Source: a virus. Taken from it: 21,444 nt of DNA. The stretch lies in UHGV virus genome UHGV-1982450. One strand, given 5' to 3'. Numbering within the stretch: the stretch's first letter is position 1; each line of letters starts with the position of its first letter. Positions 8,444-21,444 of this stretch are shown piece after piece. The notes below the pieces were generated by a model that saw nothing but the letters and a program-made list of their open reading frames with translations, was not told the origin of the DNA and searched no databases. Made by a program: the position numbers and the translations under genes.

Positions 8444-8965
8444 TTATTCTTCGAACAATTTTTCGATAGATTTTGTTGGATAGAACAAAGAACGATCGTT
8501 GTTACCAACCAGCTGGATAAAGCCCAAACTTTTATAAAACGCCCTGGCTTTATCGTTCAACGCCTCAACGAAAAGCCCATGAATGCCTACCGCAAGAGAT
8601 GCATTGTACACAACACGCATTGCGTGAGTTACAAGCATTGAGCCAAGCCCCTGACCTTGAAGAGATTTGTCCAAAGCCAGTCTGCCTAAAGTGATACTTG
8701 GGACATGCCGATAAGGCACTTTCTTTTGCTGACTCTTTGAAGGTAAGGTTTCTTTCTCAAAGCAGCTGCCTGACAAAGTGTAATAACCTAATACCTTTGG
8801 TATTTCTTCTTTAGTGCAAAGCACATAAGCGCGAAGAATTTTTCCTTCATGCTGTCTTTTTAAGTGGTTGGTCAAAAATGCGTTTAGCGACTCTTCGCCG
8901 CAATCAAAACCGTTTAGATCATAATCTTTCTCTCCAGAGAAAATCTCGATCGTCGTATTGCTCAC
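8444..8965 (-). CDS. GNAT-family acetyltransferase toxin (TacT/AtaT/KacT-like type II TA toxin)
   Basis: The N-terminus FDCGEESLNAFL, the GYYTL segment and acetyl-CoA motif A QGQGLGSMLV match the toxin family that pairs with DUF1778 antitoxins. The antitoxin gene sits directly upstream. Confidence 0.85.
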   Translation of the reverse strand: MSNTTIEIFSGEKDYDLNGFDCGEESLNAFLTNHLKRQHEGKILRAYVLCTKEEIPKVLGYYTLSGSCFEKETLPSKSQQKKVPYRHVPSITLGRLALDKSLQGQGLGSMLVTHAMRVVYNASLAVGIHGLFVEALNDKARAFYKSLGFIQLVGNNDRSLFYPTKSIEKLFEE

Positions 8966-8972
8966 GAGTAAA

Positions 8973-9242
8973 TTACTCCATGCTTTTCAGACGATTGGCA
9001 GCTCGTTTCAGCTTGTCGTTCGGTGCCGGAGGATTGCTTATAGCATCCATAACCAGATTCCAGGACTCTTCACTTAGAACCAGTCTACGGTGTTGCTCTA
9101 TCACCTTCACGGCACGTTCGGATGCACTGCTAACCATGAACTGGGTAATGCTCTGGTTAGACATTGCGGCAGCTTCCTCGATGATGCTTTTATCGTCATC
9201 GGTTAATCTCAAATCGATGCGCTGCTTTTTCAGTGCGGACAT
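8973..9242 (-). CDS. DUF1778 (RHH) antitoxin, TacA/AtaR/KacA-like
   Basis: RIDLRLTDDDKSIIEEAAAMSNQSITQFMVSSASERA is the typical DUF1778 N-terminal RHH pattern. The gene lies 7 nt upstream of the toxin gene and has an SD GGGGG. Confidence 0.85.
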   Translation of the reverse strand: MSALKKQRIDLRLTDDDKSIIEEAAAMSNQSITQFMVSSASERAVKVIEQHRRLVLSEESWNLVMDAISNPPAPNDKLKRAANRLKSME

Positions 9243-9561: not shown

Positions 9562-10227
9562 ATGACCAAGATCATTGTGGTTGGCGGCACAAAAGGCGGC
9601 CCAGGCAAATCTACCGTTGCCCAGCAAATTGCGGTATGTCTCAAAGTTAAAAAGAAAAAGAAGGTTCACGTCACCGATATCGATATCCAGCGCACCACGA
9701 CCAGCTGGTGTGAAGACCGTCGCCAGAACGAAGATCTTGAACTGATCCCGTTCGCTTATGTGCAGGACGACATCGTCAAACATCTTAAATCGCTTCAGGG
9801 GCGAACTGATTATGTAGTGGTAGATGCTGGTGGCTTTGACTCCGAAATTCAGCGTCTGGCGATGCTTATGGCTGATGTAATCATCATCCCGCTGCGCCCT
9901 AAACGTCGTGATTTGAAATCTCTGCGTGATATCGACCCGATTATCGACAACGTTCGCAATGTGAACGAGAAAGTTAAGATCCGCGCGGTAATAAACCAGT
10001 GTCCGTCATTGCCTTCCCAGGTATCACGTATTCTGGCCGCGAAGGAAATTGTCGAAACTTTCGGCATCGAGGCTGCGCCGGTTAACCTGTACAACCGTAA
10101 CGTTTATGACGATGCGGAAGAGGCAGGTCGTTCTATCTTTGAAATGACTGGCGCTGAACGCGATAAGAAGGCAGAAGCCGAGTTCGAAGAGTTTGTAGAT
10201 TACATCTTGAGTCTGGAGGAAGAATAA
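9562..10227 (+). CDS. parA: ParA-family partition ATPase (small, type Ib-like)
   Basis: Deviant Walker A GGTKGGPGKST at the N-terminus. The protein is 221 aa and is followed by a 1-nt overlapping small RHH gene. Confidence 0.9.
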   Translation: MTKIIVVGGTKGGPGKSTVAQQIAVCLKVKKKKKVHVTDIDIQRTTTSWCEDRRQNEDLELIPFAYVQDDIVKHLKSLQGRTDYVVVDAGGFDSEIQRLAMLMADVIIIPLRPKRRDLKSLRDIDPIIDNVRNVNEKVKIRAVINQCPSLPSQVSRILAAKEIVETFGIEAAPVNLYNRNVYDDAEEAGRSIFEMTGAERDKKAEAEFEEFVDYILSLEEE

Positions 10228-10586
10228 TGTCCATGAGAATGGGAGACCTTGCAAAGCGCAATGAGCCTAAAGAACCGGCCAAAAGCAGCACTCCACTGCG
10301 CCAGCCAGTCAGACCGCAGGGGCGTCCGACTCGTGGCAAAGAGAAAATTAAAAGTCGCACAATGTCACTGGAAGACGAATACTTCGAACTGCTGGAGATG
10401 ATGAAGTTCATCCCTCGTTTCGAGAAGTTCACCCGTTCTGACGTGATTCGCGCTGCTATTTTCCATCTGGCAGAGAAGTCACCGCAGGAAATCGAGGACA
10501 TCGTGAAACTTAACGAGGCGATCACAGCTGCCGATGTCACGATGCGTACCGATGAAATCAAACGAGAGTTGATGAAGAAAGGTTAA
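10227..10586 (+). CDS. putative centromere-binding RHH protein (ParG-like partner of ParA)
   Basis: ATG overlaps the parA stop (TAATG). The N-terminal tail is basic and disordered. RTMSLEDEYFELLEMM...TRSDVIRAAIFHLAE fits a strand-helix-helix RHH fold. Confidence 0.55.
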   Translation: MSMRMGDLAKRNEPKEPAKSSTPLRQPVRPQGRPTRGKEKIKSRTMSLEDEYFELLEMMKFIPRFEKFTRSDVIRAAIFHLAEKSPQEIEDIVKLNEAITAADVTMRTDEIKRELMKKG

Positions 10587-13875: not shown

Positions 13876-15087
13876 TTGCCAAAACCACAAAAGAAAAAAC
13901 ACATGAGCCTTTATGGTATTCAAATACCGAGGCTTATCAAGATATTACCTGCAAAAAATAGGGGTAAGAACGTGAGCGACTTGAAAGAATTACTGACCGA
14001 GCTGGATTTTGAGCAATGGCTCGATATGGAAGGGATCATCTACCGTCGTGGTGGAGTCAGTACTCGCGGACGAGAGGTCAACATTAAAGAGTGTCCGGTA
14101 TGCGGCAGCTCAAACTGGAAGGTTTATTTCAACCTGACCAGTGGTGTCGGCAAATGCTTTGCAGGCGATCATCCCGAAGAGATTCAGTTCAACAAGCTGG
14201 TCTTCCTAAAGCATTACAGCGGCAAATCTCGTCGCGATTTTGAAGAGTACGTCCAGAACGCGCTGATCTCACAAGGATGGGCACCGAAGAAGGAAGAGAT
14301 CGTACTGGCCAGCAAGGTTGAACTGGAAGGACCGGTAGCTCTCCCGCGCCATTACGAACTCCCCATTGACGGTCGTCTTCCTGATTATCTGGTGGAGCGC
14401 CAGATTTCCCCGGAGCTGGCCAAATACTTTGATCTGCGTTACTGCGTCGAAGGCAAGCACGCATACGTCGATCCGTACACAGACCAGGTCAAAGGACAGG
14501 TATTCGATATGCGAATACTGATACCGGTTTACGATCTGGATGGCGTGATGAAGACCTTCCAGGGTCGTGACATTACCGGTGCAGCAGAACGCCGGTATCT
14601 GTTCCCCATGCAGCTGCCAGCATCGGGTAAATTTCTCTACAACGGCCACAATGCAGTCGGCAAACAGACTGTAGTTGTCTGTGAGGGGGCGTTCGATGTT
14701 ATGGGGGTTAAACGAGCTATTTTTGATGAAGAAACATTACGCGATTACGTGGAACCGATAGGAACGTTCGGGATGCATCTATCTGGTAACACCACTCAGG
14801 ATGCAGAAGATCAGTTGGGCGCGTTCCTGACGCTCAAGGCGCGTGGATTACGTAATGTGATTATGATGTGGGATAGTGAAAAGCAAGCTATACGCAACAC
14901 GATGGCCGCAGCCAGGCGACTGACTAGTATCGGTCTTAATGTCAAAGTAGCGTGTTTGGGCGAGGAAGGACTCGACCCCGGCGATGCGACACCGGGGCAG
15001 ATTATCAAAGCCTACTATTGCGCAAAACCTTATTCACGACAGCTTGAACTTTTAAGCAAGGTAAAAGGCATAGCTGCATTAGTTTGA
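13876..15087 (+). CDS. DNA primase (Zn-finger + Toprim, DnaG/T7 gp4-like)
   Basis: Zn-finger CPVCGSSNWKVYFNLTSGVGKCFAGDH, Toprim glutamate VVVCEGAFDVMG, and an acidic MMWDSE motif. The track start at 13876 is TTG; the true start may be the ATG at 13903 or the GTG at 13972. Confidence 0.8.
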   Translation: MPKPQKKKHMSLYGIQIPRLIKILPAKNRGKNVSDLKELLTELDFEQWLDMEGIIYRRGGVSTRGREVNIKECPVCGSSNWKVYFNLTSGVGKCFAGDHPEEIQFNKLVFLKHYSGKSRRDFEEYVQNALISQGWAPKKEEIVLASKVELEGPVALPRHYELPIDGRLPDYLVERQISPELAKYFDLRYCVEGKHAYVDPYTDQVKGQVFDMRILIPVYDLDGVMKTFQGRDITGAAERRYLFPMQLPASGKFLYNGHNAVGKQTVVVCEGAFDVMGVKRAIFDEETLRDYVEPIGTFGMHLSGNTTQDAEDQLGAFLTLKARGLRNVIMMWDSEKQAIRNTMAAARRLTSIGLNVKVACLGEEGLDPGDATPGQIIKAYYCAKPYSRQLELLSKVKGIAALV

Positions 15088-15174
15088 ACCAGTATTATCA
15101 ACGGCTCGGTAGTGTCTAAATTATCCGTGGCGATTCAGTTCTTTTCGTGGGTATGTCTACTTATAGATATTTGT

Positions 15175-15202
15175 TTGTGTTGTGTTCTTGGTCGAATACA
15201 AT
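15175..15202 (+). promoter_or_regulatory. candidate sigma70 promoter of the island operon
   Basis: TTGTGT (15175..15180) - N16 - TACAAT (15197..15202), about 30 to 50 nt upstream of the possible DprA-like starts. Pattern match only. Confidence 0.25.
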
Positions 15203-15229
15203 TAATCTGCATGGTTAATGGACTAAAAA

Positions 15230-16216
15230 TTGTCGTTCTTTGGGGGAGAAGTGAACATTGTAGATGCTCTTGTTCTCAAGAAGTTAATGAGCGTTGGTGA
15301 TGAAACTGTTCTGTCAATCTTAAAGTTTTCAGCGTACAGCGGAGTGTCAACACTCGAAGAACTGGTAGTTAACTCCTCCAATCTGAAAATCTCAAATGGT
15401 AAATCTCGAGCAACTCTCGAAAGTTTCTTCGACGCTGCGAACTTCCAGGCTCTCAGGGACGAAGTAAAAACAGAGATTGATTCGTTCAAAAATAAAGGAG
15501 TTGAGATTGTTATCTTCGGTTCGAAAAACTATCCAATTTCGTTATATGATCTCCCGAAACCTCCACCCTTTCTTTACTGTAAAGGCAATCTAAATCTCTT
15601 AGAGAATAGGCTTTCATTAGCTGTTGTAGGAACTCGTGAAAACACCCCCAAGGGTGAAACCCTAACGATTAAAACTATTCAAAAGTTTGCGACTTATGGC
15701 TTCACGATAGTCAGTGGACTTGCACTGGGTATCGATACAATTGCTCATCGCGCGGCATTAGATGCCAAAACACCAACGATTTCTGTTCTTGTCGATGTGG
15801 AGTCTATTTCTCCCGCAAGTAATCGGGAACTCGCTAAGGAAATATTGGACGAGGGCGGACTTCTAGTTGCAGAGAATGCACCAGGAACCAAAGCAATACC
15901 TGCGTTCTTTGCTAAGCGAGACAGGATACAAGCAGGTTTATCTACTGCCGTCTTTGCTATTGAAACTTCGATAGATGGTGGGACGATGCACGCAGTCAAA
16001 TCTGCTATCTCTATGATGCGTCCTGTCTTCGTTCCTGACGTACATAAAGCTAAGTATCCAGATCTTACTATCAAGGCAATTTCAGGAACTCAACAGCTAG
16101 TTAACGAAGGGAGGGCGATACCATACACGAGCGAATCTTATGAAGATATTCGTCTTCAATTAGAAGATATCGCGAGTTCATTTGGGTCGTTGAAAGCAAA
16201 AGGTGGCCTGCTGTGA
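15230..16216 (+). CDS. DprA/Smf-family (Rossmann/SLOG-like) DNA-processing protein homologue
   Basis: The canonical DprA core runs YPISLYDLPKPPPFLYCKGN...LAVVGTRENTPKG...IVSGLALGIDTIAHRAAL...FFAKRDRIQAGLS...ETSIDGGTMHAV. The N-terminal part resembles the DprA SAM/HhH-like region. The track start is TTG (15230); GTG at 15251, after GGGGGAG, is an alternative. Confidence 0.85.
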   Translation: MSFFGGEVNIVDALVLKKLMSVGDETVLSILKFSAYSGVSTLEELVVNSSNLKISNGKSRATLESFFDAANFQALRDEVKTEIDSFKNKGVEIVIFGSKNYPISLYDLPKPPPFLYCKGNLNLLENRLSLAVVGTRENTPKGETLTIKTIQKFATYGFTIVSGLALGIDTIAHRAALDAKTPTISVLVDVESISPASNRELAKEILDEGGLLVAENAPGTKAIPAFFAKRDRIQAGLSTAVFAIETSIDGGTMHAVKSAISMMRPVFVPDVHKAKYPDLTIKAISGTQQLVNEGRAIPYTSESYEDIRLQLEDIASSFGSLKAKGGLL

Positions 16217-19200
16217 TAAAGGTCATCGTCCTCGATCTTGATGACACGCTTATTGATACATCAAGCCTCGAACCACTTCGGTTAGCTGGCCGATGGAGAG
16301 ACATACCCAGGTACTTTAATGGTTGTGTCATCAATCAGGACGTTGTCGGCCTTGTTACAACGGCTCGGTCGGTTGGAATCAAGGTTGCTATCTTCTCGAA
16401 TGCGCCTTCGAACTACGTTCAGGGGCTACTCAAACACTTCAGTATCACTGTTGATTATGTAGTAGCCTACCATGATGTAACGCAGCATAAGCCGAGCCCT
16501 GAGGGCGTTACTCGTATTCTCGAGTACTTCGGTGTTAGCGCCGACGAGTCAATTTATTTAGGAGATAGTAACCTAGATCGAGACGCTGCTTCCAATGCAG
16601 GAGTTGAGTTTTTCTCAGTAGATTGGGGTTCTGCCTCGGAGATCGATTCGTCACATAAGGGAATAAGCGGTCTCTCCGAGCTTATTGGAAAAAACTCGAC
16701 GCGGAGCTCCGCAAGAACTGGACGTTCTGAGTTAATACAATCTGGGAATAAACTTCATCTGGGATTCTATTTAGATGGTATCAAACAGGAAGTTTGGTCT
16801 TTCAAGGATAACAAGAATACTTCTGTTCGCCGCTGGGTTAACAAGACTGTTGAGCTAGCTTCTTCATTCCCAGCCATAGATATAGTTGTTCGAGCGTTAG
16901 GTCACGCTGAGCTTAGGGCTGAAGATGGCGATAAAGCATTAGATACCTTGGGCAAATCGCTGGCTGTTGCTTTAGGGGCTTCTTACCAACCTAAGATATT
17001 AGAGAAAGATCACGTATTAGATAAATCGACTAATTGCACTGCAGCACAAAGACTCCACCAGGTCAGAGGTGCCTATAAAGCCGATTTTGATTCAATAGAA
17101 GCTAATTCAAATCCGACATTTCTGATCATTGACGACGTATTAACTTCGGGGGCTACAACTGATGAGATAACACGCTGTCTATCTCAAGCTTTTCCGAATT
17201 CAAGTATTTACATTTTTACGTTGGTTAAAACTCTCTATAGATTGGAGCTATGCACTGACAGCCAAGAACAACAACACAATAACCAACTGTTTTCAGATTT
17301 GTACAACCCAATCATCGACTCGCTGGCGGACGAAAGTGAACTATCTAGACATGTCAGGTCGAAGTCTAGTAGCAGGCTTGTAAGCAAGAAGTTTTCTGCT
17401 AACTACGCGAGAACCAACCATAACTTCATTTTCCACAATCTTCTCCAGTATTCTATCTCGTCTGAAGCGGCGTCTGGACAGCTATTTGCAGCAATTCAAG
17501 TTCTTAAGAATATGCTTCAGAGAGGGAAGCCAACAATAGCCTCGCGGAAGCTGAGGAAGGCATTTGGCATTGAACTGGATCAGAACGTTCTTAATACACC
17601 AGCTCAGGCTCTTGTGTCAGATAAGCCGGTTTTTTGGAATAGATTGATTCGAGGCCACAAACAGTCAGGAAACTACCCAGCGAAAAGGTTTTTTGATGAG
17701 CTGATACCGAAGTATTTCGGTAAGTACATTTTTGTAAAACAACTAATGCTCCCTGAAGTCCAGATTTACGATATGACTCAGGTCTACGTTGAACAATTCC
17801 AGAACCGACAGGTAGATTTTTACATTCCTCAAGTTGGTTTAATTATTGAGATAGACGGTCAGCAGCACCAAAATTCTCAGCATTTAGATGAAATGAGGGA
17901 TGCGTTTACCGAAAGCCTGGGACTGAAGACTGTTCGATTCACTGTTCAAGAACTGGCATCTGAGAACCAGTCATTTATCAGTAAGATAAATTCGATTATT
18001 TCTCACATTCAGATCGTTGATGGTCTAGAGCGAAATGGTGTCCTAACGCCTCCTAATGGTATTTCTTTATTGAATTACCAAGAGGCTTACGAAAATGGAG
18101 TCGATGTTACTGACTCGCGATTGAGGCTGACCTCGGCGTTGCGTTTCCAGATACTGTTATTAGAGCTTCTTGAACGCGGTCAGATCAGACTAGGGGAGTT
18201 GAAAAAACTATTCATAGTCAATCGTGATGGAACTGATTTTGCTGAAGCGGCACTGGACGACCTGAACGATTTGTTATCGAATATCTTTCGTCTCATCGGC
18301 ATTGAAGAAAAGCGAATTGAGGTTGCGCTGATCGAATCAGATGAGCTTCCGAGCGAACGGTCTGGTGAAAATATATTCATCGACTTCAGCTTACTGGAGC
18401 GTTATGACGATTCCTTTCAAGTTAACCAAGACGTCATATATTCACGTACGGATTACTTCGATTTCTATCGAAACTTCGAAGATTCTGATGCTGTTTCAAT
18501 AGAAACCAGTCAATTGATTGACTATGACTTTTTTGAGCTTTCATGTAGTAACCCCATTACCTACAAGCTAGATCTTAGCCCAGGCAGCGAGCAGAGAGAG
18601 TCGCTGAGATACTTCCTCAGCAACCTGTTTCTACCATACCTAGAGGATGTAGATTTCAGGGAAGGGCAGGTTGGTATCATAGGATCTGCACTTTCGAAAA
18701 ACGGCACAATAGGATTGCTGCCTACAGGTTCGGGTAAGTCGATTTGTTACCAGCTGTCTGCGGTCCTGCAACCAGCCGTTAGCTTTGTCGTGTGCCCGAT
18801 AAAAAGTTTGATGTATGACCAGAAAGCAGATTTGGATAGCATCGGCTTCACTCGAAGCAATTTTATTACAAGTGATTTGAAGGCAGGAGAGAAGGCCAAA
18901 GTTCAGAGAGATTTCGGACGTGGTAAGTACTTCTTCGTTTTTATATCGCCTGAGCGATTCCAAACCCATGCGTTTAGAAAAGAGATGTTGGCTATCGGAC
19001 TAGATCTCTCATTTGCCTACGCGGTGATCGATGAAGCTCACTGTTTGTCTGAGTGGGGACATGATTTCAGGACTTCTTATCTGAACCTGGCAAATACAAT
19101 CGAACGGTTTGCTCCCAGTGCGAGTTATATAGGTCTAACGGCAACAGCATCAGTTAACGTCCTAAAGGATATTCAAACAGAGTTTGATATCCCAGATGAT

Positions 19201-20889
19201 TTTGTCCGTACCCCCATGGACTTCACTCGCGAGGAACTATCATTCCACGTCATTGACGATAAAGGCCGTAAAGGTGATGCAGTCGTCGAGCTTGTTTCTG
19301 AAATGGAGGGTAAATGGAATTCAGATGGGGAAGACGGCAATAAGGCGGGGATCATATTCACTTCTACCGTCAACGGAGCTAAGGGGTGTTATAGCTTAGC
19401 GGGCCGAATATCAACACTCTTGAAGATGGATGTTAGATATTTTTCGGGGTCGGCTCCGAAAATGGGTGGATTGCAGGGAGAGGCTTTCGATAGATATAAG
19501 CGCCAAGTTCAAGACGATTTTAAAGAAAATAAATACCGCCTACTTACTGCCACTAAGGCATTCGGAATGGGCGTGAATAAGGGAAATATTGCCTATACGG
19601 TTCACTTCGGAATACCTGGGTCGATGGAGGCCTTGTATCAGGAAGCTGGCAGGGCAGGGCGAGATAAAAAACTATTCAAGGAAGTACCCGCAGATTGCTA
19701 TGTGCTTCTCACAAAAGAGCCCAATTCAGCTATTCTCGACAAGATTTGGGACGCTAGCACGAACGTCAAAGATCTGAAGGAGTACGTGAAGTCATTGAGT
19801 CGCGATAGCGACCTGAACACAAATCTATTCCTGATGACAAACGGCTTGGGCACAATCAATGATGAGTTCAAGTTGATGGCAAATGTATACGAATTTTTTA
19901 AGTACAATCAGGAACACAACACGGTGACCATTACTGCCAGGCAGTTTGGTACGGAAAAGTTTAAATTGGAAAAGGCTATCTACCGCCTTTCTCAATTAGG
20001 TATTGTCTCTGACTGGGTAATCGAAGACTTTTTTAATGGAACGCTCTCTGTCGAGTTCCAGTGCCTATCGGAAGAAGGCCTGGAAAAGAAAATTGAGCAT
20101 ACCGTCAGAAAGTATGATCCTGAGTTTAAGCTCGCTGATGTGTTCAGTAGTGATAACCAGTACTACAAAATTCTCTGCGACAAGCTGAGAAAAGGGTCTA
20201 TCGATAAATCGCAATTTATCTTTCTTGTTCTTTTACTTTGGTCCTATGACCATTTTGTCTACAACCGCCGCCAGTCACAGAAGAACGTTTATGAACACTG
20301 TAGTTTATTTGCTGAAGGCAGGATGGATGGTAAAGAATTTAAGGAGAAGTTAGAGGGTTATTTCAGACACGACAAGTCGAGCCAACTTTTGCTCAATATG
20401 GCTGAGAATTCTGTGTCGGTGAAGTTATGGCCATCAGTTTTTTTTGAAACTGATGAAGAAGAGGGCTCGGAACATTTAGTAAGCAGCGAGAAGATGACGA
20501 TCCTACGAGGTCAGATTTCTCGATTCCTAGAGTCATACAAAGATAATGCATTCTTGAACTACTTGAGTGGTGTGCTGCGACTAGCTTCCGATGAGTTTGA
20601 TGATGCAGATGGAGAGCGAAGAATGGCATCGTCATTTGATCGGTTGATCAGTGATAATAGGGATGAAGCACTAGAGCTGGTCCGAAAAACTATGCAGTTA
20701 AAACCAATATTTTCTGAAAATGCGCGAAGTCGCTTTGCTCGTTTGGTCCATGAGAAATTTGAAGATTTGGATTTTCTTGGGGAAGTAAATGAAGAGCTAG
20801 GAGATCCGTTCTCCTATCACACTTTGTTAGCTCCACTGGCAATTAGACTTGAAAAACTTACCAGCCTATACAAGGGGATTAATTGGTGA
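16213..20889 (+). CDS. 1558-aa multidomain protein: HAD phosphatase + type I PRTase (ComF-like) + DUF559/Vsr-like PD-(D/E)xK nuclease + RecQ-family helicase core + unknown C-terminal region
   Basis: HAD motifs: DLDDT (D8/D10, nt 16234..16248), FSNAP, K93, GDSNLDRDAASNAG (nt 16561..). PRPP loop: FLIIDDVLTSGATT (nt 17119..17160). Nuclease motif: DFYIPQVGLIIEIDGQQH...VRFTVQEL (nt 17815..17955). RecQ motifs: FREGQ (18655), PTGSGKSICYQ (18721), VIDEAHCLSEWGHDFR (19027..), LTATAS, ATKAFGMGVNK, YQEAGRAGRD (..19665). The GTG start overlaps the DprA-like stop (GTGA, 16213..16216), with AAGGTGG 6 nt upstream. Confidence 0.9.
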   Translation: MIKVIVLDLDDTLIDTSSLEPLRLAGRWRDIPRYFNGCVINQDVVGLVTTARSVGIKVAIFSNAPSNYVQGLLKHFSITVDYVVAYHDVTQHKPSPEGVTRILEYFGVSADESIYLGDSNLDRDAASNAGVEFFSVDWGSASEIDSSHKGISGLSELIGKNSTRSSARTGRSELIQSGNKLHLGFYLDGIKQEVWSFKDNKNTSVRRWVNKTVELASSFPAIDIVVRALGHAELRAEDGDKALDTLGKSLAVALGASYQPKILEKDHVLDKSTNCTAAQRLHQVRGAYKADFDSIEANSNPTFLIIDDVLTSGATTDEITRCLSQAFPNSSIYIFTLVKTLYRLELCTDSQEQQHNNQLFSDLYNPIIDSLADESELSRHVRSKSSSRLVSKKFSANYARTNHNFIFHNLLQYSISSEAASGQLFAAIQVLKNMLQRGKPTIASRKLRKAFGIELDQNVLNTPAQALVSDKPVFWNRLIRGHKQSGNYPAKRFFDELIPKYFGKYIFVKQLMLPEVQIYDMTQVYVEQFQNRQVDFYIPQVGLIIEIDGQQHQNSQHLDEMRDAFTESLGLKTVRFTVQELASENQSFISKINSIISHIQIVDGLERNGVLTPPNGISLLNYQEAYENGVDVTDSRLRLTSALRFQILLLELLERGQIRLGELKKLFIVNRDGTDFAEAALDDLNDLLSNIFRLIGIEEKRIEVALIESDELPSERSGENIFIDFSLLERYDDSFQVNQDVIYSRTDYFDFYRNFEDSDAVSIETSQLIDYDFFELSCSNPITYKLDLSPGSEQRESLRYFLSNLFLPYLEDVDFREGQVGIIGSALSKNGTIGLLPTGSGKSICYQLSAVLQPAVSFVVCPIKSLMYDQKADLDSIGFTRSNFITSDLKAGEKAKVQRDFGRGKYFFVFISPERFQTHAFRKEMLAIGLDLSFAYAVIDEAHCLSEWGHDFRTSYLNLANTIERFAPSASYIGLTATASVNVLKDIQTEFDIPDDFVRTPMDFTREELSFHVIDDKGRKGDAVVELVSEMEGKWNSDGEDGNKAGIIFTSTVNGAKGCYSLAGRISTLLKMDVRYFSGSAPKMGGLQGEAFDRYKRQVQDDFKENKYRLLTATKAFGMGVNKGNIAYTVHFGIPGSMEALYQEAGRAGRDKKLFKEVPADCYVLLTKEPNSAILDKIWDASTNVKDLKEYVKSLSRDSDLNTNLFLMTNGLGTINDEFKLMANVYEFFKYNQEHNTVTITARQFGTEKFKLEKAIYRLSQLGIVSDWVIEDFFNGTLSVEFQCLSEEGLEKKIEHTVRKYDPEFKLADVFSSDNQYYKILCDKLRKGSIDKSQFIFLVLLLWSYDHFVYNRRQSQKNVYEHCSLFAEGRMDGKEFKEKLEGYFRHDKSSQLLLNMAENSVSVKLWPSVFFETDEEEGSEHLVSSEKMTILRGQISRFLESYKDNAFLNYLSGVLRLASDEFDDADGERRMASSFDRLISDNRDEALELVRKTMQLKPIFSENARSRFARLVHEKFEDLDFLGEVNEELGDPFSYHTLLAPLAIRLEKLTSLYKGINW

Positions 20890-21374
20890 ATGACATACAG
20901 AAACTACACCGGGTAATCGATTCACTCGAAGAGCAATCGACGCAAGTGGCACAGTTTAATGGCCTGTTGAGCGCCGTCAGCGATGCAAGAACTGAGATAG
21001 AGGCTGCGAAATCAACGCTCGTAAATCTAGCTTATGAACACGCTGAATTGTTTACGAAGAACTCGAATAAATTTGAAGAGTTTGACGGCCGCCTTATGTC
21101 ACTAAATGATCTTCTAGGCCAGATCAAAGATGAACAGTTGAAACTAAGGCGTGAGGTTGCAGCCTTGAAGTTTGTAACACCAGAGCAGTTTGAACAAGGC
21201 TGCACAGCAATTGATAGCCGCATTGCTAAACAATTAGCGGAATTGAAAAGCAAGTTAGAGGCGGCGGCGGAGTCTCAGCAAAGATCGATAAGCGGGCTAC
21301 GAACCATAGTTGTTTTAGGTATCTTGGTGTTGGCTGGAGGTGTCGGATTCTTGGCTATGAATATTTTTCTTTAA
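20883..21374 (+). CDS. coiled-coil protein with a C-terminal transmembrane anchor
   Basis: About 140 aa of heptad-like helical sequence, then TIVVLGILVLAGGVGFLAMNIFL at the extreme C-terminus. The likely start is GTG 20886, which overlaps the upstream stop (GTGA 20886..20889), with AAGGGGA 7 nt upstream. The track start TTG 20883 is in the same frame. Confidence 0.6.
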   Translation: MVNDIQKLHRVIDSLEEQSTQVAQFNGLLSAVSDARTEIEAAKSTLVNLAYEHAELFTKNSNKFEEFDGRLMSLNDLLGQIKDEQLKLRREVAALKFVTPEQFEQGCTAIDSRIAKQLAELKSKLEAAAESQQRSISGLRTIVVLGILVLAGGVGFLAMNIFL

Positions 21375-21444
21375 TTTTCAGATTGTCATTCAGTTTTTAG
21401 TTGTAATCAATAAGTTGGAATACAGAGGCTTTTTCCTCTGCTGT

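Follow-up and report, generated by a model that had tools for sequence, protein, structure and literature searches.

Is a gene cluster that joins a DprA-family protein, a ComF-like phosphoribosyltransferase (PRTase) and a helicase a DNA-uptake machine put to new use, or something else? The question is raised by UHGV-1982450, a viral sequence of 21,444 nucleotides (the window, meaning the whole stretch of DNA that was analysed), which is an SSU5-like phage-plasmid. At 15.1-21.4 kb, its + strand carries three closely packed open reading frames (ORFs) encoding a DprA-family protein, a protein of 1558 amino acids and a protein of 162 amino acids. An earlier note, written from the sequence without database searches, had likened the segment 15230-17250 to the competence trio ComFA, ComFC and DprA. 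Judging from sequence comparison, the cassette is an architectural variant of the ShosTA/PsyrTA defence class rather than a DNA-uptake machine, and it is from these relatives that we infer its function. By this analogy, it is probably an anti-phage defence cargo of the phage-plasmid, acting in the manner of abortive infection or of a type IV toxin-antitoxin (TA) system. The direct observations underlying this reading are the domain identities, the conserved catalytic residues, the order and coupling of the genes, the co-variation of two modules, and a context of defence islands and mobile elements.

A DprA-like protein coupled to a HAD-PRTase module

The first gene of the cassette (15251-16216, + strand) encodes a DprA-like protein of 321 amino acids that matches Pfam DNA_processg_A with an E-value of 1.9e-53. 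Among PADLOC models it was assigned to ShosA at 1.5e-67 and to PsyrA at 1.7e-28, the PsyrA model being matched over positions 82-292 of 398 only. The best PDB matches were ShosA (8zva/9vzo, 5e-34), as compared to 1e-20 to 7e-18 for competence DprA proteins. The protein stays under the dprA equivalog cut-off (TIGR00732, 159.9 bits versus 191.15) and under that of PRK10736 (130.6 versus 495). Depending on the start chosen, the protein measures 309-328 amino acids, and no helix-turn-helix (HTH) domain was detected by Pfam. Alignment to ShosA shows that the single-stranded DNA (ssDNA)-binding residues R139 and R234 (residues taken from PMC12961424) are kept, while R261 is replaced by lysine. By these comparisons, the protein is closest to the antitoxin ShosA, and we regard it as ShosA-type. 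ShosA binds ssDNA and RecA, and its RecA interaction is sensitive to ssDNA (PMC12961424). The earlier suggestion that the DprA-like protein monitors ssDNA agrees with these experiments.

The start of this gene is ambiguous, with TTG 15230, GTG 15251 and ATG 15287 as candidates. The mechanically called ORF spans 15230-16216 from the TTG; the starts of homologues line up with residue 8 of this ORF, which points to GTG 15251 (321 amino acids, RefSeq WP_024172709.1). RefSeq records themselves differ, placing the start either at 15251 (GTG, 321 amino acids) or at 15287 (ATG, 309 amino acids). One chromosomal copy has an annotated ORF of 22 codons that lies directly upstream of the DprA gene and overlaps its start (window 15088-15286). 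At the other end, the TGA stop codon and the GTG start of the large gene (16213-20889, + strand) share 4 nt, GTGA (CTGCTGTGATAAAGG), and a Shine-Dalgarno-like AAGGTGG lies 8-14 nt upstream of this GTG. The identical 4-nt overlap was found in distant homologues. The coupling of a DprA-family gene to a gene for a PRTase and a superfamily 2 (SF2) helicase, as described previously, is hence borne out by the Pfam matches and by this overlap. Position 17250 falls at residue 346 of the large protein, nearly the exact end of its PRTase domain; the segment 15230-17250 covers the DprA, HAD and PRTase parts, with the helicase and the membrane protein falling outside.

The large protein opens with a HAD-type phosphatase domain (16213-16692, + strand, residues 1-~160; HAD_2 2.8e-17), the counterpart of the N-terminal pyrophosphatase domain of ShosT. 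ShosTA is a type IV TA/abortive-infection defence system of E. coli (PDB 8zva, 8zvb-d, 9vzo), in which the antitoxin neutralises the toxin without binding it directly. The toxin ShosT carries a HAD-fold pyrophosphatase at its N-terminus and a PRTase at its C-terminus (PMC11961720, PMC12961424). The HAD residues DxDxT (D8, D10, T12), K93, D118 and D122 are kept across the family of the large protein, and a family profile matched the ShosT PDB chains at 4.4e-6 in the HAD region. An AlphaFold2 (AF2) model of residues 1-470 reached a predicted local distance difference test (pLDDT) score of 81.5. A Foldseek search with this model returned ShosT (8zvd/8zvc/8zvb) at the top, with an E-value of 1e-13 over ~400 aligned columns. 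According to the model, residues 1-~365 mirror the two-domain HAD-PRTase architecture of ShosT.

The PRTase domain itself (16726-17268, + strand, residues 172-352) is ComF-like and ShosT-like and contains the phosphoribosyl pyrophosphate (PRPP) loop D307-D308-V-x-T311-x-G313-x-T315. This DDVxTxGxT loop, including D307 and D308, is invariant in the family. As the earlier note had supposed, the module is ComF-like: in four tests it lay nearer to ComFC/GntX and to defence PRTases than to metabolic PRTases, and the grouping with the latter that the note had named as a refutation is thus not seen. Among 30 diverse family members, the NCBIfam models GntX and comF each matched all 30 (best E-values 6e-12 and 1e-10), and models of metabolic PRTases matched at most 19, more weakly. 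Aligned by hhalign, the module profile reached 96.6% probability (E 6e-10) against E. coli YhgH/GntX, a ComF homologue, versus 28.9% against E. coli Apt and 28.7% against PyrE. Foldseek of the module ranked ShosT (1.0e-6) and ComFC (1.4e-6) before adenine phosphoribosyltransferases; this fold comparison was employed because a PRTase-only sequence search of the PDB is too insensitive. The PADLOC model of ShosT also matched 30 of the 30 members, weakly, and PRTase_III-A matched 8.

The GntX and comF scores of the module are 36 and 23 bits, against curated cut-offs of 304 and 233.55. Moreover, the ComFC-type four-cysteine zinc finger was not found in residues 1-400, which hold four scattered cysteines and no CxxC pair; E. 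coli GntX shows CWLC, CSVC, CPQC and CGRC. This zinc finger defines ComFC and is required for its membrane association and for uptake (PMC9005727). At E ≤ 1e-10, a profile search of 1.84 billion representatives yielded 800 proteins. Of these, the 124 closest that are not fusions matched the PADLOC models of ShosT (121), the PRTase part of PsyrT (105) and the retron III-A PRTase (51), and CxxC is missing from the first 70 residues in 124 of 126 shortlisted nearest relatives. The stand-alone nearest relative (P0131) lies on a 3.6-kb contig with uninformative neighbours. Because the scores fall far under the curated cut-offs and the zinc finger is missing, the module is probably not a member of the ComF family; we would place it in a defence-associated, zinc-finger-less sister group of ComF.

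The nuclease-helicase core and its membrane partner

Downstream of the ShosT-like module, a low-confidence linker (17269-17376, + strand, residues 353-388; AF2 pLDDT <50 at 369-386) leads to a core whose parts all follow on the + strand. The conserved N-terminal region of the core (17377-17748, residues 389-512) is without a Pfam match and carries the motifs SANYxxTNHNF and LKNxLQRGKPT. Its residues A396, Y398, N404, F405, N433, Q436, R437 and G438 are invariant across both forms of the family, long and short, that are described below. It is followed by a DUF559/Vsr-like nuclease domain of the PD-(D/E)xK type (17749-18012, residues 513-600; Pfam DUF559 1.1e-9), which matches the endonuclease-like protein PDB 3hrl and in which D535, E546, D548 and H552 are invariant. 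The HAD phosphatase and this nuclease are two further domains, which the text of the earlier note leaves unmentioned. A middle region (18013-18648, residues 601-812) has conserved residues and no Pfam match at E ≤ 1. It connects to the RecQ-family SF2 helicase core (18649-19671, residues 813-1153; DEAD 2.3e-17, Helicase_C 9.2e-11), which matches RecQ in the PDB (4tmu, 4.1e-41) and clears the cut-off of NCBIfam TIGR00614 recQ_fam (223.6 versus 219.8 bits). Its invariant motifs are the Walker A GSGKS, the RecQ signature DEAHCLSEWGHDFR in the aromatic-rich loop after motif II, and QEAGRAGRD. The RecQ accessory domains Zn, RQC and HRDC were not detected with Pfam or NCBIfam. The protein ends in a conserved C-terminal domain (19672-20886, residues 1154-1558) with many invariant residues, including W1268, W1343, R1352 and R1437, and without a Pfam match. 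Even at a relaxed threshold, Pfam returned nothing for residues 380-520, 601-812 and 1155-1558. Full-length relatives of the large protein form about 100 clusters at 41-95% identity, and PHROG 33220, an entry listed as of unknown function, matches it over its full length. As judged by the E-values, chance is excluded for the elements described.

The third gene (20886-21374, alternative start 20883, + strand) starts with GTG and encodes a small, tail-anchored coiled-coil protein of 162/163 amino acids; here too, the stop codon of the large gene and the start overlap by 4 nt, again GTGA. The 162-residue protein is predicted to be coiled-coil-like, and its last 19-23 residues form a hydrophobic segment with a mean Kyte-Doolittle value of 2.2-2.5. 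We predict this segment to be a C-terminal transmembrane anchor (21303-21371, + strand; TIVVLGILVLAGGVGFLAMNIFL; mean Kyte-Doolittle 2.2-2.5). The presence of a membrane-anchored protein after the large gene, as noted before, thus holds.

To assign this protein to its partner, the family has to be divided by length. Long forms carry the HAD and PRTase domains; short-form relatives (~1130-1200 amino acids) start at the equivalent of residue ~389 and are without both. An equivalent ORF of 156-198 amino acids overlaps the helicase-gene stop in 12 of 14 long- and short-form loci, and its homologues have in common an N-terminal L..L...I..LE.Q motif and a C-terminal transmembrane segment. The unit of DprA and ShosT-like module was present in all seven long-form loci and in none of eight short-form loci (local tblastn), three of the latter having only 0.5-1.2 kb of upstream sequence. 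These neighbourhood statistics rest on 14 loci. A scan of genome contigs with the family alignment was flooded by generic RecQ genes, the patterns HCLSEWGH and AFGMG[VI]NK being RecQ-wide; family members obtained from it came from five loci only, all of them short forms. The 97%-identical copies keep the order of DprA gene, large gene and overlapping small ORF, as do five diverse relatives at 42-66% identity. From the co-occurrence in long and short forms it follows that the membrane protein belongs to the nuclease-helicase core and DprA to the HAD-PRTase unit. In both forms, the small protein accompanies this core, not the pair of DprA and PRTase. The cassette is built of two modules, an equivalent of ShosTA and a nuclease-helicase core with its own membrane partner.

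Mobility, proposed working and alternatives

The bounds of 97%-identical copies in other replicons, obtained by megablast, delimit a mobile three-gene cassette at 15146-21426 (+ strand). Copies at ~97% identity lie on Klebsiella and Raoultella plasmids and on E. coli chromosomes, with differing flanks. In the window, similarity to the phage-plasmid backbone ends at ~15033-15062, right after the primase gene, a variable site that is empty or otherwise filled in SSU5 and Cyrano. The GC content is 0.42-0.45 within the cassette versus 0.50-0.55 in the backbone. The E. coli chromosomal copy sits between a type I restriction-modification (R-M) system and PD-(D/E)XK, restriction endonuclease and MZA genes, and the Klebsiella plasmid copy also adjoins a type I R-M system. 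Distant homologues adjoin nSTAND, BrxR and Zorya genes, short forms adjoin McrBC, and further homologues adjoin integrase or TraG/SSB genes. A scan of the cassette for promoters and terminators gave the same counts as shuffled sequence, and a literature search on defence hotspots of SSU5-type phage-plasmids found nothing specific.

Some further observations concern the copies and the backbone. An IS1B or IS5 interrupts the large gene in some copies, and the pieces are then annotated 'HAD-IA hydrolase' and 'helicase-related protein'; other plasmids retain DprA alone, or DprA with an N-terminal part of the large gene. Plasmids with such disrupted or partial copies are NZ_CP086388.1, NZ_MG516909.1, NZ_JBSAOW010000004.1 and, from Klebsiella, NZ_CP055510.1, CP025214.1 and NZ_CP084846.1. 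Recurrent inactivation of the large gene would fit a costly or toxic system. At the left end of the window, positions 1-61 contain ~60 bases that match the end (inverted repeat) of IS26 with 98-100% identity in many phage and plasmid records, from which we conclude that the window starts within or at the edge of an IS26 copy. The backbone carries a separate type II TA pair, consisting of a GNAT/KacT-like acetyltransferase toxin (8444-8965, - strand) and a DUF1778 antitoxin (~8973-9242, - strand), which adjoins ParA-like partition genes (9562-10586).

How might the cassette work? Protection against phages has been shown for both ShosTA and PsyrTA (Millman 2022 preprint; PMC9122126). PRPP binding is required for the toxicity of ShosT, and ShosA requires ssDNA and RecA binding (PMC11961720, PMC12961424). 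The toxicity of RqlH requires its PRTase and involves the helicase (PMC4670107). By analogy we infer, as follows, what is toxic, what counters it, what triggers it, and which parts the helicase, nuclease and membrane protein play. As in ShosTA and RqlHI, the PRPP-binding PRTase would provide a toxic or genotoxic activity, which the phosphatase would help by removing pyrophosphate. In uninfected cells, the DprA-like protein would keep the PRTase harmless through its binding of ssDNA and RecA. Phage infection would then lift this protection, as ssDNA or replication intermediates divert the DprA-like protein and RecA; alternatively, host shut-off might deplete a labile antitoxin. Held at the inner membrane by the small protein, the helicase-nuclease would serve in sensing or tracking DNA, and probably in cleaving it, and the activity of the toxin would thereby be coupled to foreign DNA.

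Several points weigh against a defence function of this kind. The parts given to the helicase, nuclease and membrane protein are conjecture, and since the core also occurs in short forms without DprA or PRTase, the modules might act independently. The sequence similarity to ShosT is weak (PADLOC, ~1e-7 to 1e-10), and the profile match to ShosT in the PDB (4e-6) is limited to the HAD region. A PRTase-only profile searched against PDB sequences retrieved neither ShosT nor ComFC, and only metabolic PRTases via the PRPP loop. PHROGs lists all three cassette proteins as of unknown function, and RefSeq calls the large protein just 'RecQ family helicase'. Finally, a plasmid-borne TA pair could serve maintenance instead of defence.

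This last point leads to an addiction module, in which cells that lose the element, and hence the DprA-like antitoxin, would be killed by a long-lived PRTase toxin (post-segregational killing). ShosTA and PsyrTA were indeed first found as TA pairs, with deletion of the antitoxin unobtainable (Millman 2022 preprint), ShosA is intrinsically unstable (PMC11961720), and the cassette is carried by phage-plasmids and plasmids. However, the same cassette is chromosomal within defence islands, IS-disrupted and truncated copies persist on plasmids, the phage-plasmid already has its GNAT/DUF1778 pair and a ParA system, and the 1170-residue nuclease-helicase with its membrane partner would be superfluous for addiction; we regard this explanation as quite unlikely. 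An accessory role in recombination and repair is very unlikely. Here, the RecQ-type helicase and DprA would load RecA, process ends and aid recombination of the element or replication restart; the RecQ-family core and the DprA-family protein speak for this. ShosA binds RecA and was proposed to promote homologous recombination (PMC11961720, PMC12961424), and the cassette adjoins the DnaB-like helicase, primase and ligase genes of the element. Yet most related phage-plasmids are without the cassette, which moves between unrelated replicons and has defence genes as its neighbours elsewhere. No Zn, RQC or HRDC domain was detected for its helicase, which shares one polypeptide with a Vsr-like nuclease and a HAD-PRTase of the toxin type.

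The hypothesis of the earlier note, that the cassette might intercept conjugative or transforming ssDNA, takes the form of a competence-like handler. In this model, a membrane-tethered helicase, the ComF-like PRTase and DprA would act on ssDNA entering by conjugation, transformation or phage injection, and would bring about entry exclusion rather than abortive infection by a toxin. ComFC is an ssDNA-binding, membrane-associated protein with DprA and ComFA as interaction partners (PMC9005727), the DprA-like protein retains ssDNA-binding arginines, the helicase has a tail-anchored membrane protein as conserved partner, and the combination of DprA, PRTase and helicase recurs with several helicase families. 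In addition, two marine homologues lie by ssb in conjugative-element-like contexts, one of them also by TraG_N. Against this model, the helicase is of the RecQ family and not ComFA, and the ComFC zinc finger is missing. The HAD phosphatase and an intact PRPP loop suggest a catalytic role like that of the toxin ShosT. The membrane protein is present also in short forms without DprA and PRTase, and ShosTA and PsyrTA act on double-stranded DNA phages via toxicity, not exclusion (PMC11961720; Millman 2022 preprint). On balance, we consider such a handler unlikely, and an anti-phage defence of the ShosTA/PsyrTA class remains our preferred reading. In the two marine homologues, the SSB gene is found ≤~1.5 kb downstream of the cassette (L087, 11480-11980; L088, 10202-10612); one is near TraG_N and the other near a reverse transcriptase, which hints at conjugative-element or retron-rich contexts.

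The fusion of PRTase and helicase is not confined to this family. Members of the same PRTase clade are fused to SF2 helicases with an MTES_1575 nuclease, to UvrD-like superfamily 1 (SF1) helicases and to Upf1-like SF1 helicases. A DprA gene lies directly upstream in two of three helicase-fusion loci checked, namely P0148 (L095, where HAD is a separate gene) and P0165 (L097/L098). Such recurrent fusion argues that PRTase and DNA motor are functionally coupled and not merely co-located, and that the toxicity of the PRTase is linked mechanistically to DNA tracking. This link would bear on the activity and the acceptor substrate of the ShosT and RqlH PRTases, and on the role of the PRTase fold of ComFC during transformation. 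We tentatively go one step further, to a reading that we hold to be rather doubtful: a triad of ComF-like PRTase, DNA motor and DprA may have been put together independently with at least four helicase types. The types in the triad are RecQ-like (here and in RqlH), SF2 with MTES_1575 nuclease and UvrD-like SF1, with Upf1-like SF1 fusions in addition. The recurrence would imply that DNA is what the PRTase clade acts on, or that motor-handled DNA gates it, e.g. in a PRPP-dependent modification or in catalysis coupled to ssDNA, and that its effect is not a mere depletion of some metabolite pool; the tail-anchored partner would put this assembly at the membrane, the entry site of foreign DNA. If true, defence systems would offer a tractable way into the biochemical role of ComFC in natural transformation. 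Fusions to HEAT or MORN repeats also occur in the PRTase clade. At the third locus (L096, P0204), a PLD-like gene lies downstream, and a pair of DprA and PRTase-PG_binding genes is a neighbour.

Comparison with known systems

With respect to ComFA/ComFC/DprA, the DprA family and the ComF-like PRTase of the proposed competence trio stand, whereas ComFA is replaced by a RecQ-family helicase, the ComFC zinc finger is missing and the DprA-like protein is no dprA equivalog. The scores lie far under the ComF, GntX and dprA cut-offs, and the cassette has additional HAD, nuclease and C-terminal domains. It is found in mobile elements and defence islands instead of a competence-gene context, and its characterised relatives are toxins, not uptake factors. 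The earlier note is right on the interactions among the three competence proteins in S. pneumoniae, for which Diallo 2017 (cited in PMC9005727) reported ComFA-ComFC-DprA complexes. The competence analogy was previously drawn for RqlHI, a DprA protein with a helicase-PRTase (Russell & Mulvey 2015, PMC4670107; Iyer et al. 2017, PMC5512222), and Rousset et al. 2022 (PMC9122126) proposed DprA as a sensor of phage DNA and activator of the PRTase. Since these papers already contain it, the competence interpretation is a rediscovery.

PADLOC PDLC02868, labelled DpdF after the helicase of the 7-deazaguanine Dpd modification/restriction cluster, matches residues 471-1471 (17623-20625) nearly end to end at 3e-112, taking in the nuclease, the helicase and the C-terminal domain. 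We rejected an identity with DpdF, as NCBIfam NF041063 gave 139.4 bits versus a cut-off of 550 and a Dpd context is missing; none of the 14 inspected loci had tgt/dpdA- or queC-type neighbours, the conserved partner being the small tail-anchored protein. The PADLOC label may take in a family outside Dpd systems. The PRTase effectors of type III-A retrons and OpnC of Ophion belong to the same broad defence-associated PRTase clade, in which ShosT, PsyrT, retron and OpnC PRTases have been united (bioRxiv 10.1101/2025.09.30.679545). In contrast to these, the cassette has no reverse transcriptase/non-coding RNA, radical SAM (rSAM) or PHP partner; it has a DprA-like partner and a PRTase-helicase fusion.

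PsyrTA and RqlHI likewise combine a RecQ-family helicase and a PRTase in one polypeptide with a DprA-like partner. The PADLOC model of PsyrT matches the helicase of the large protein (8e-61, model positions 20-337) and also its PRTase (model positions 593-684; 22 of 30 members). The order of the two domains is reversed, as RqlH/PsyrT have the PRTase at the C-terminus and the large protein has it at the N-terminus (PMC4670107). Moreover, RqlH/PsyrT (~690 amino acids) are without the HAD domain, the Vsr-like nuclease and the long C-terminal domain, RqlI/PsyrA (~400 amino acids) have an extra C-terminal HTH, a membrane protein is absent, and the gene order differs.

The arrangement of ShosA, a ShosT-Vsr-like nuclease-RecQ-like helicase-C-terminal domain protein and a tail-anchored protein was not found described in the literature searched, nor was the wide range of PRTase-helicase fusions. 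Among defence PRTases of the ComF-like clade, fusion to helicases of different families recurs, together with a DprA-like partner. About 100 clusters are annotated merely as 'RecQ family helicase', 'HAD-IA hydrolase' or 'DprA' with a transformation Gene Ontology term, and would be overlooked or misread in defence surveys of plasmids and phage-plasmids. ShosTA is the closest in layout: a DprA-like antitoxin gene stands beside the gene of a toxin that begins with a HAD-fold pyrophosphatase and ends with a PRPP-binding PRTase, the DD of the PRPP loop and the ssDNA-binding arginines of the antitoxin are conserved, and the span 15230-17250 matches the ShosA/ShosT pair exactly. ShosTA, however, consists of two genes with a free-standing toxin of ~420 amino acids, whereas here the unit is fused to a nuclease-helicase of 1170 amino acids and accompanied by a conserved third gene. 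As the cassette demonstrates, a physical union of the ShosTA pair with a separate nuclease-helicase and membrane-protein module is possible.

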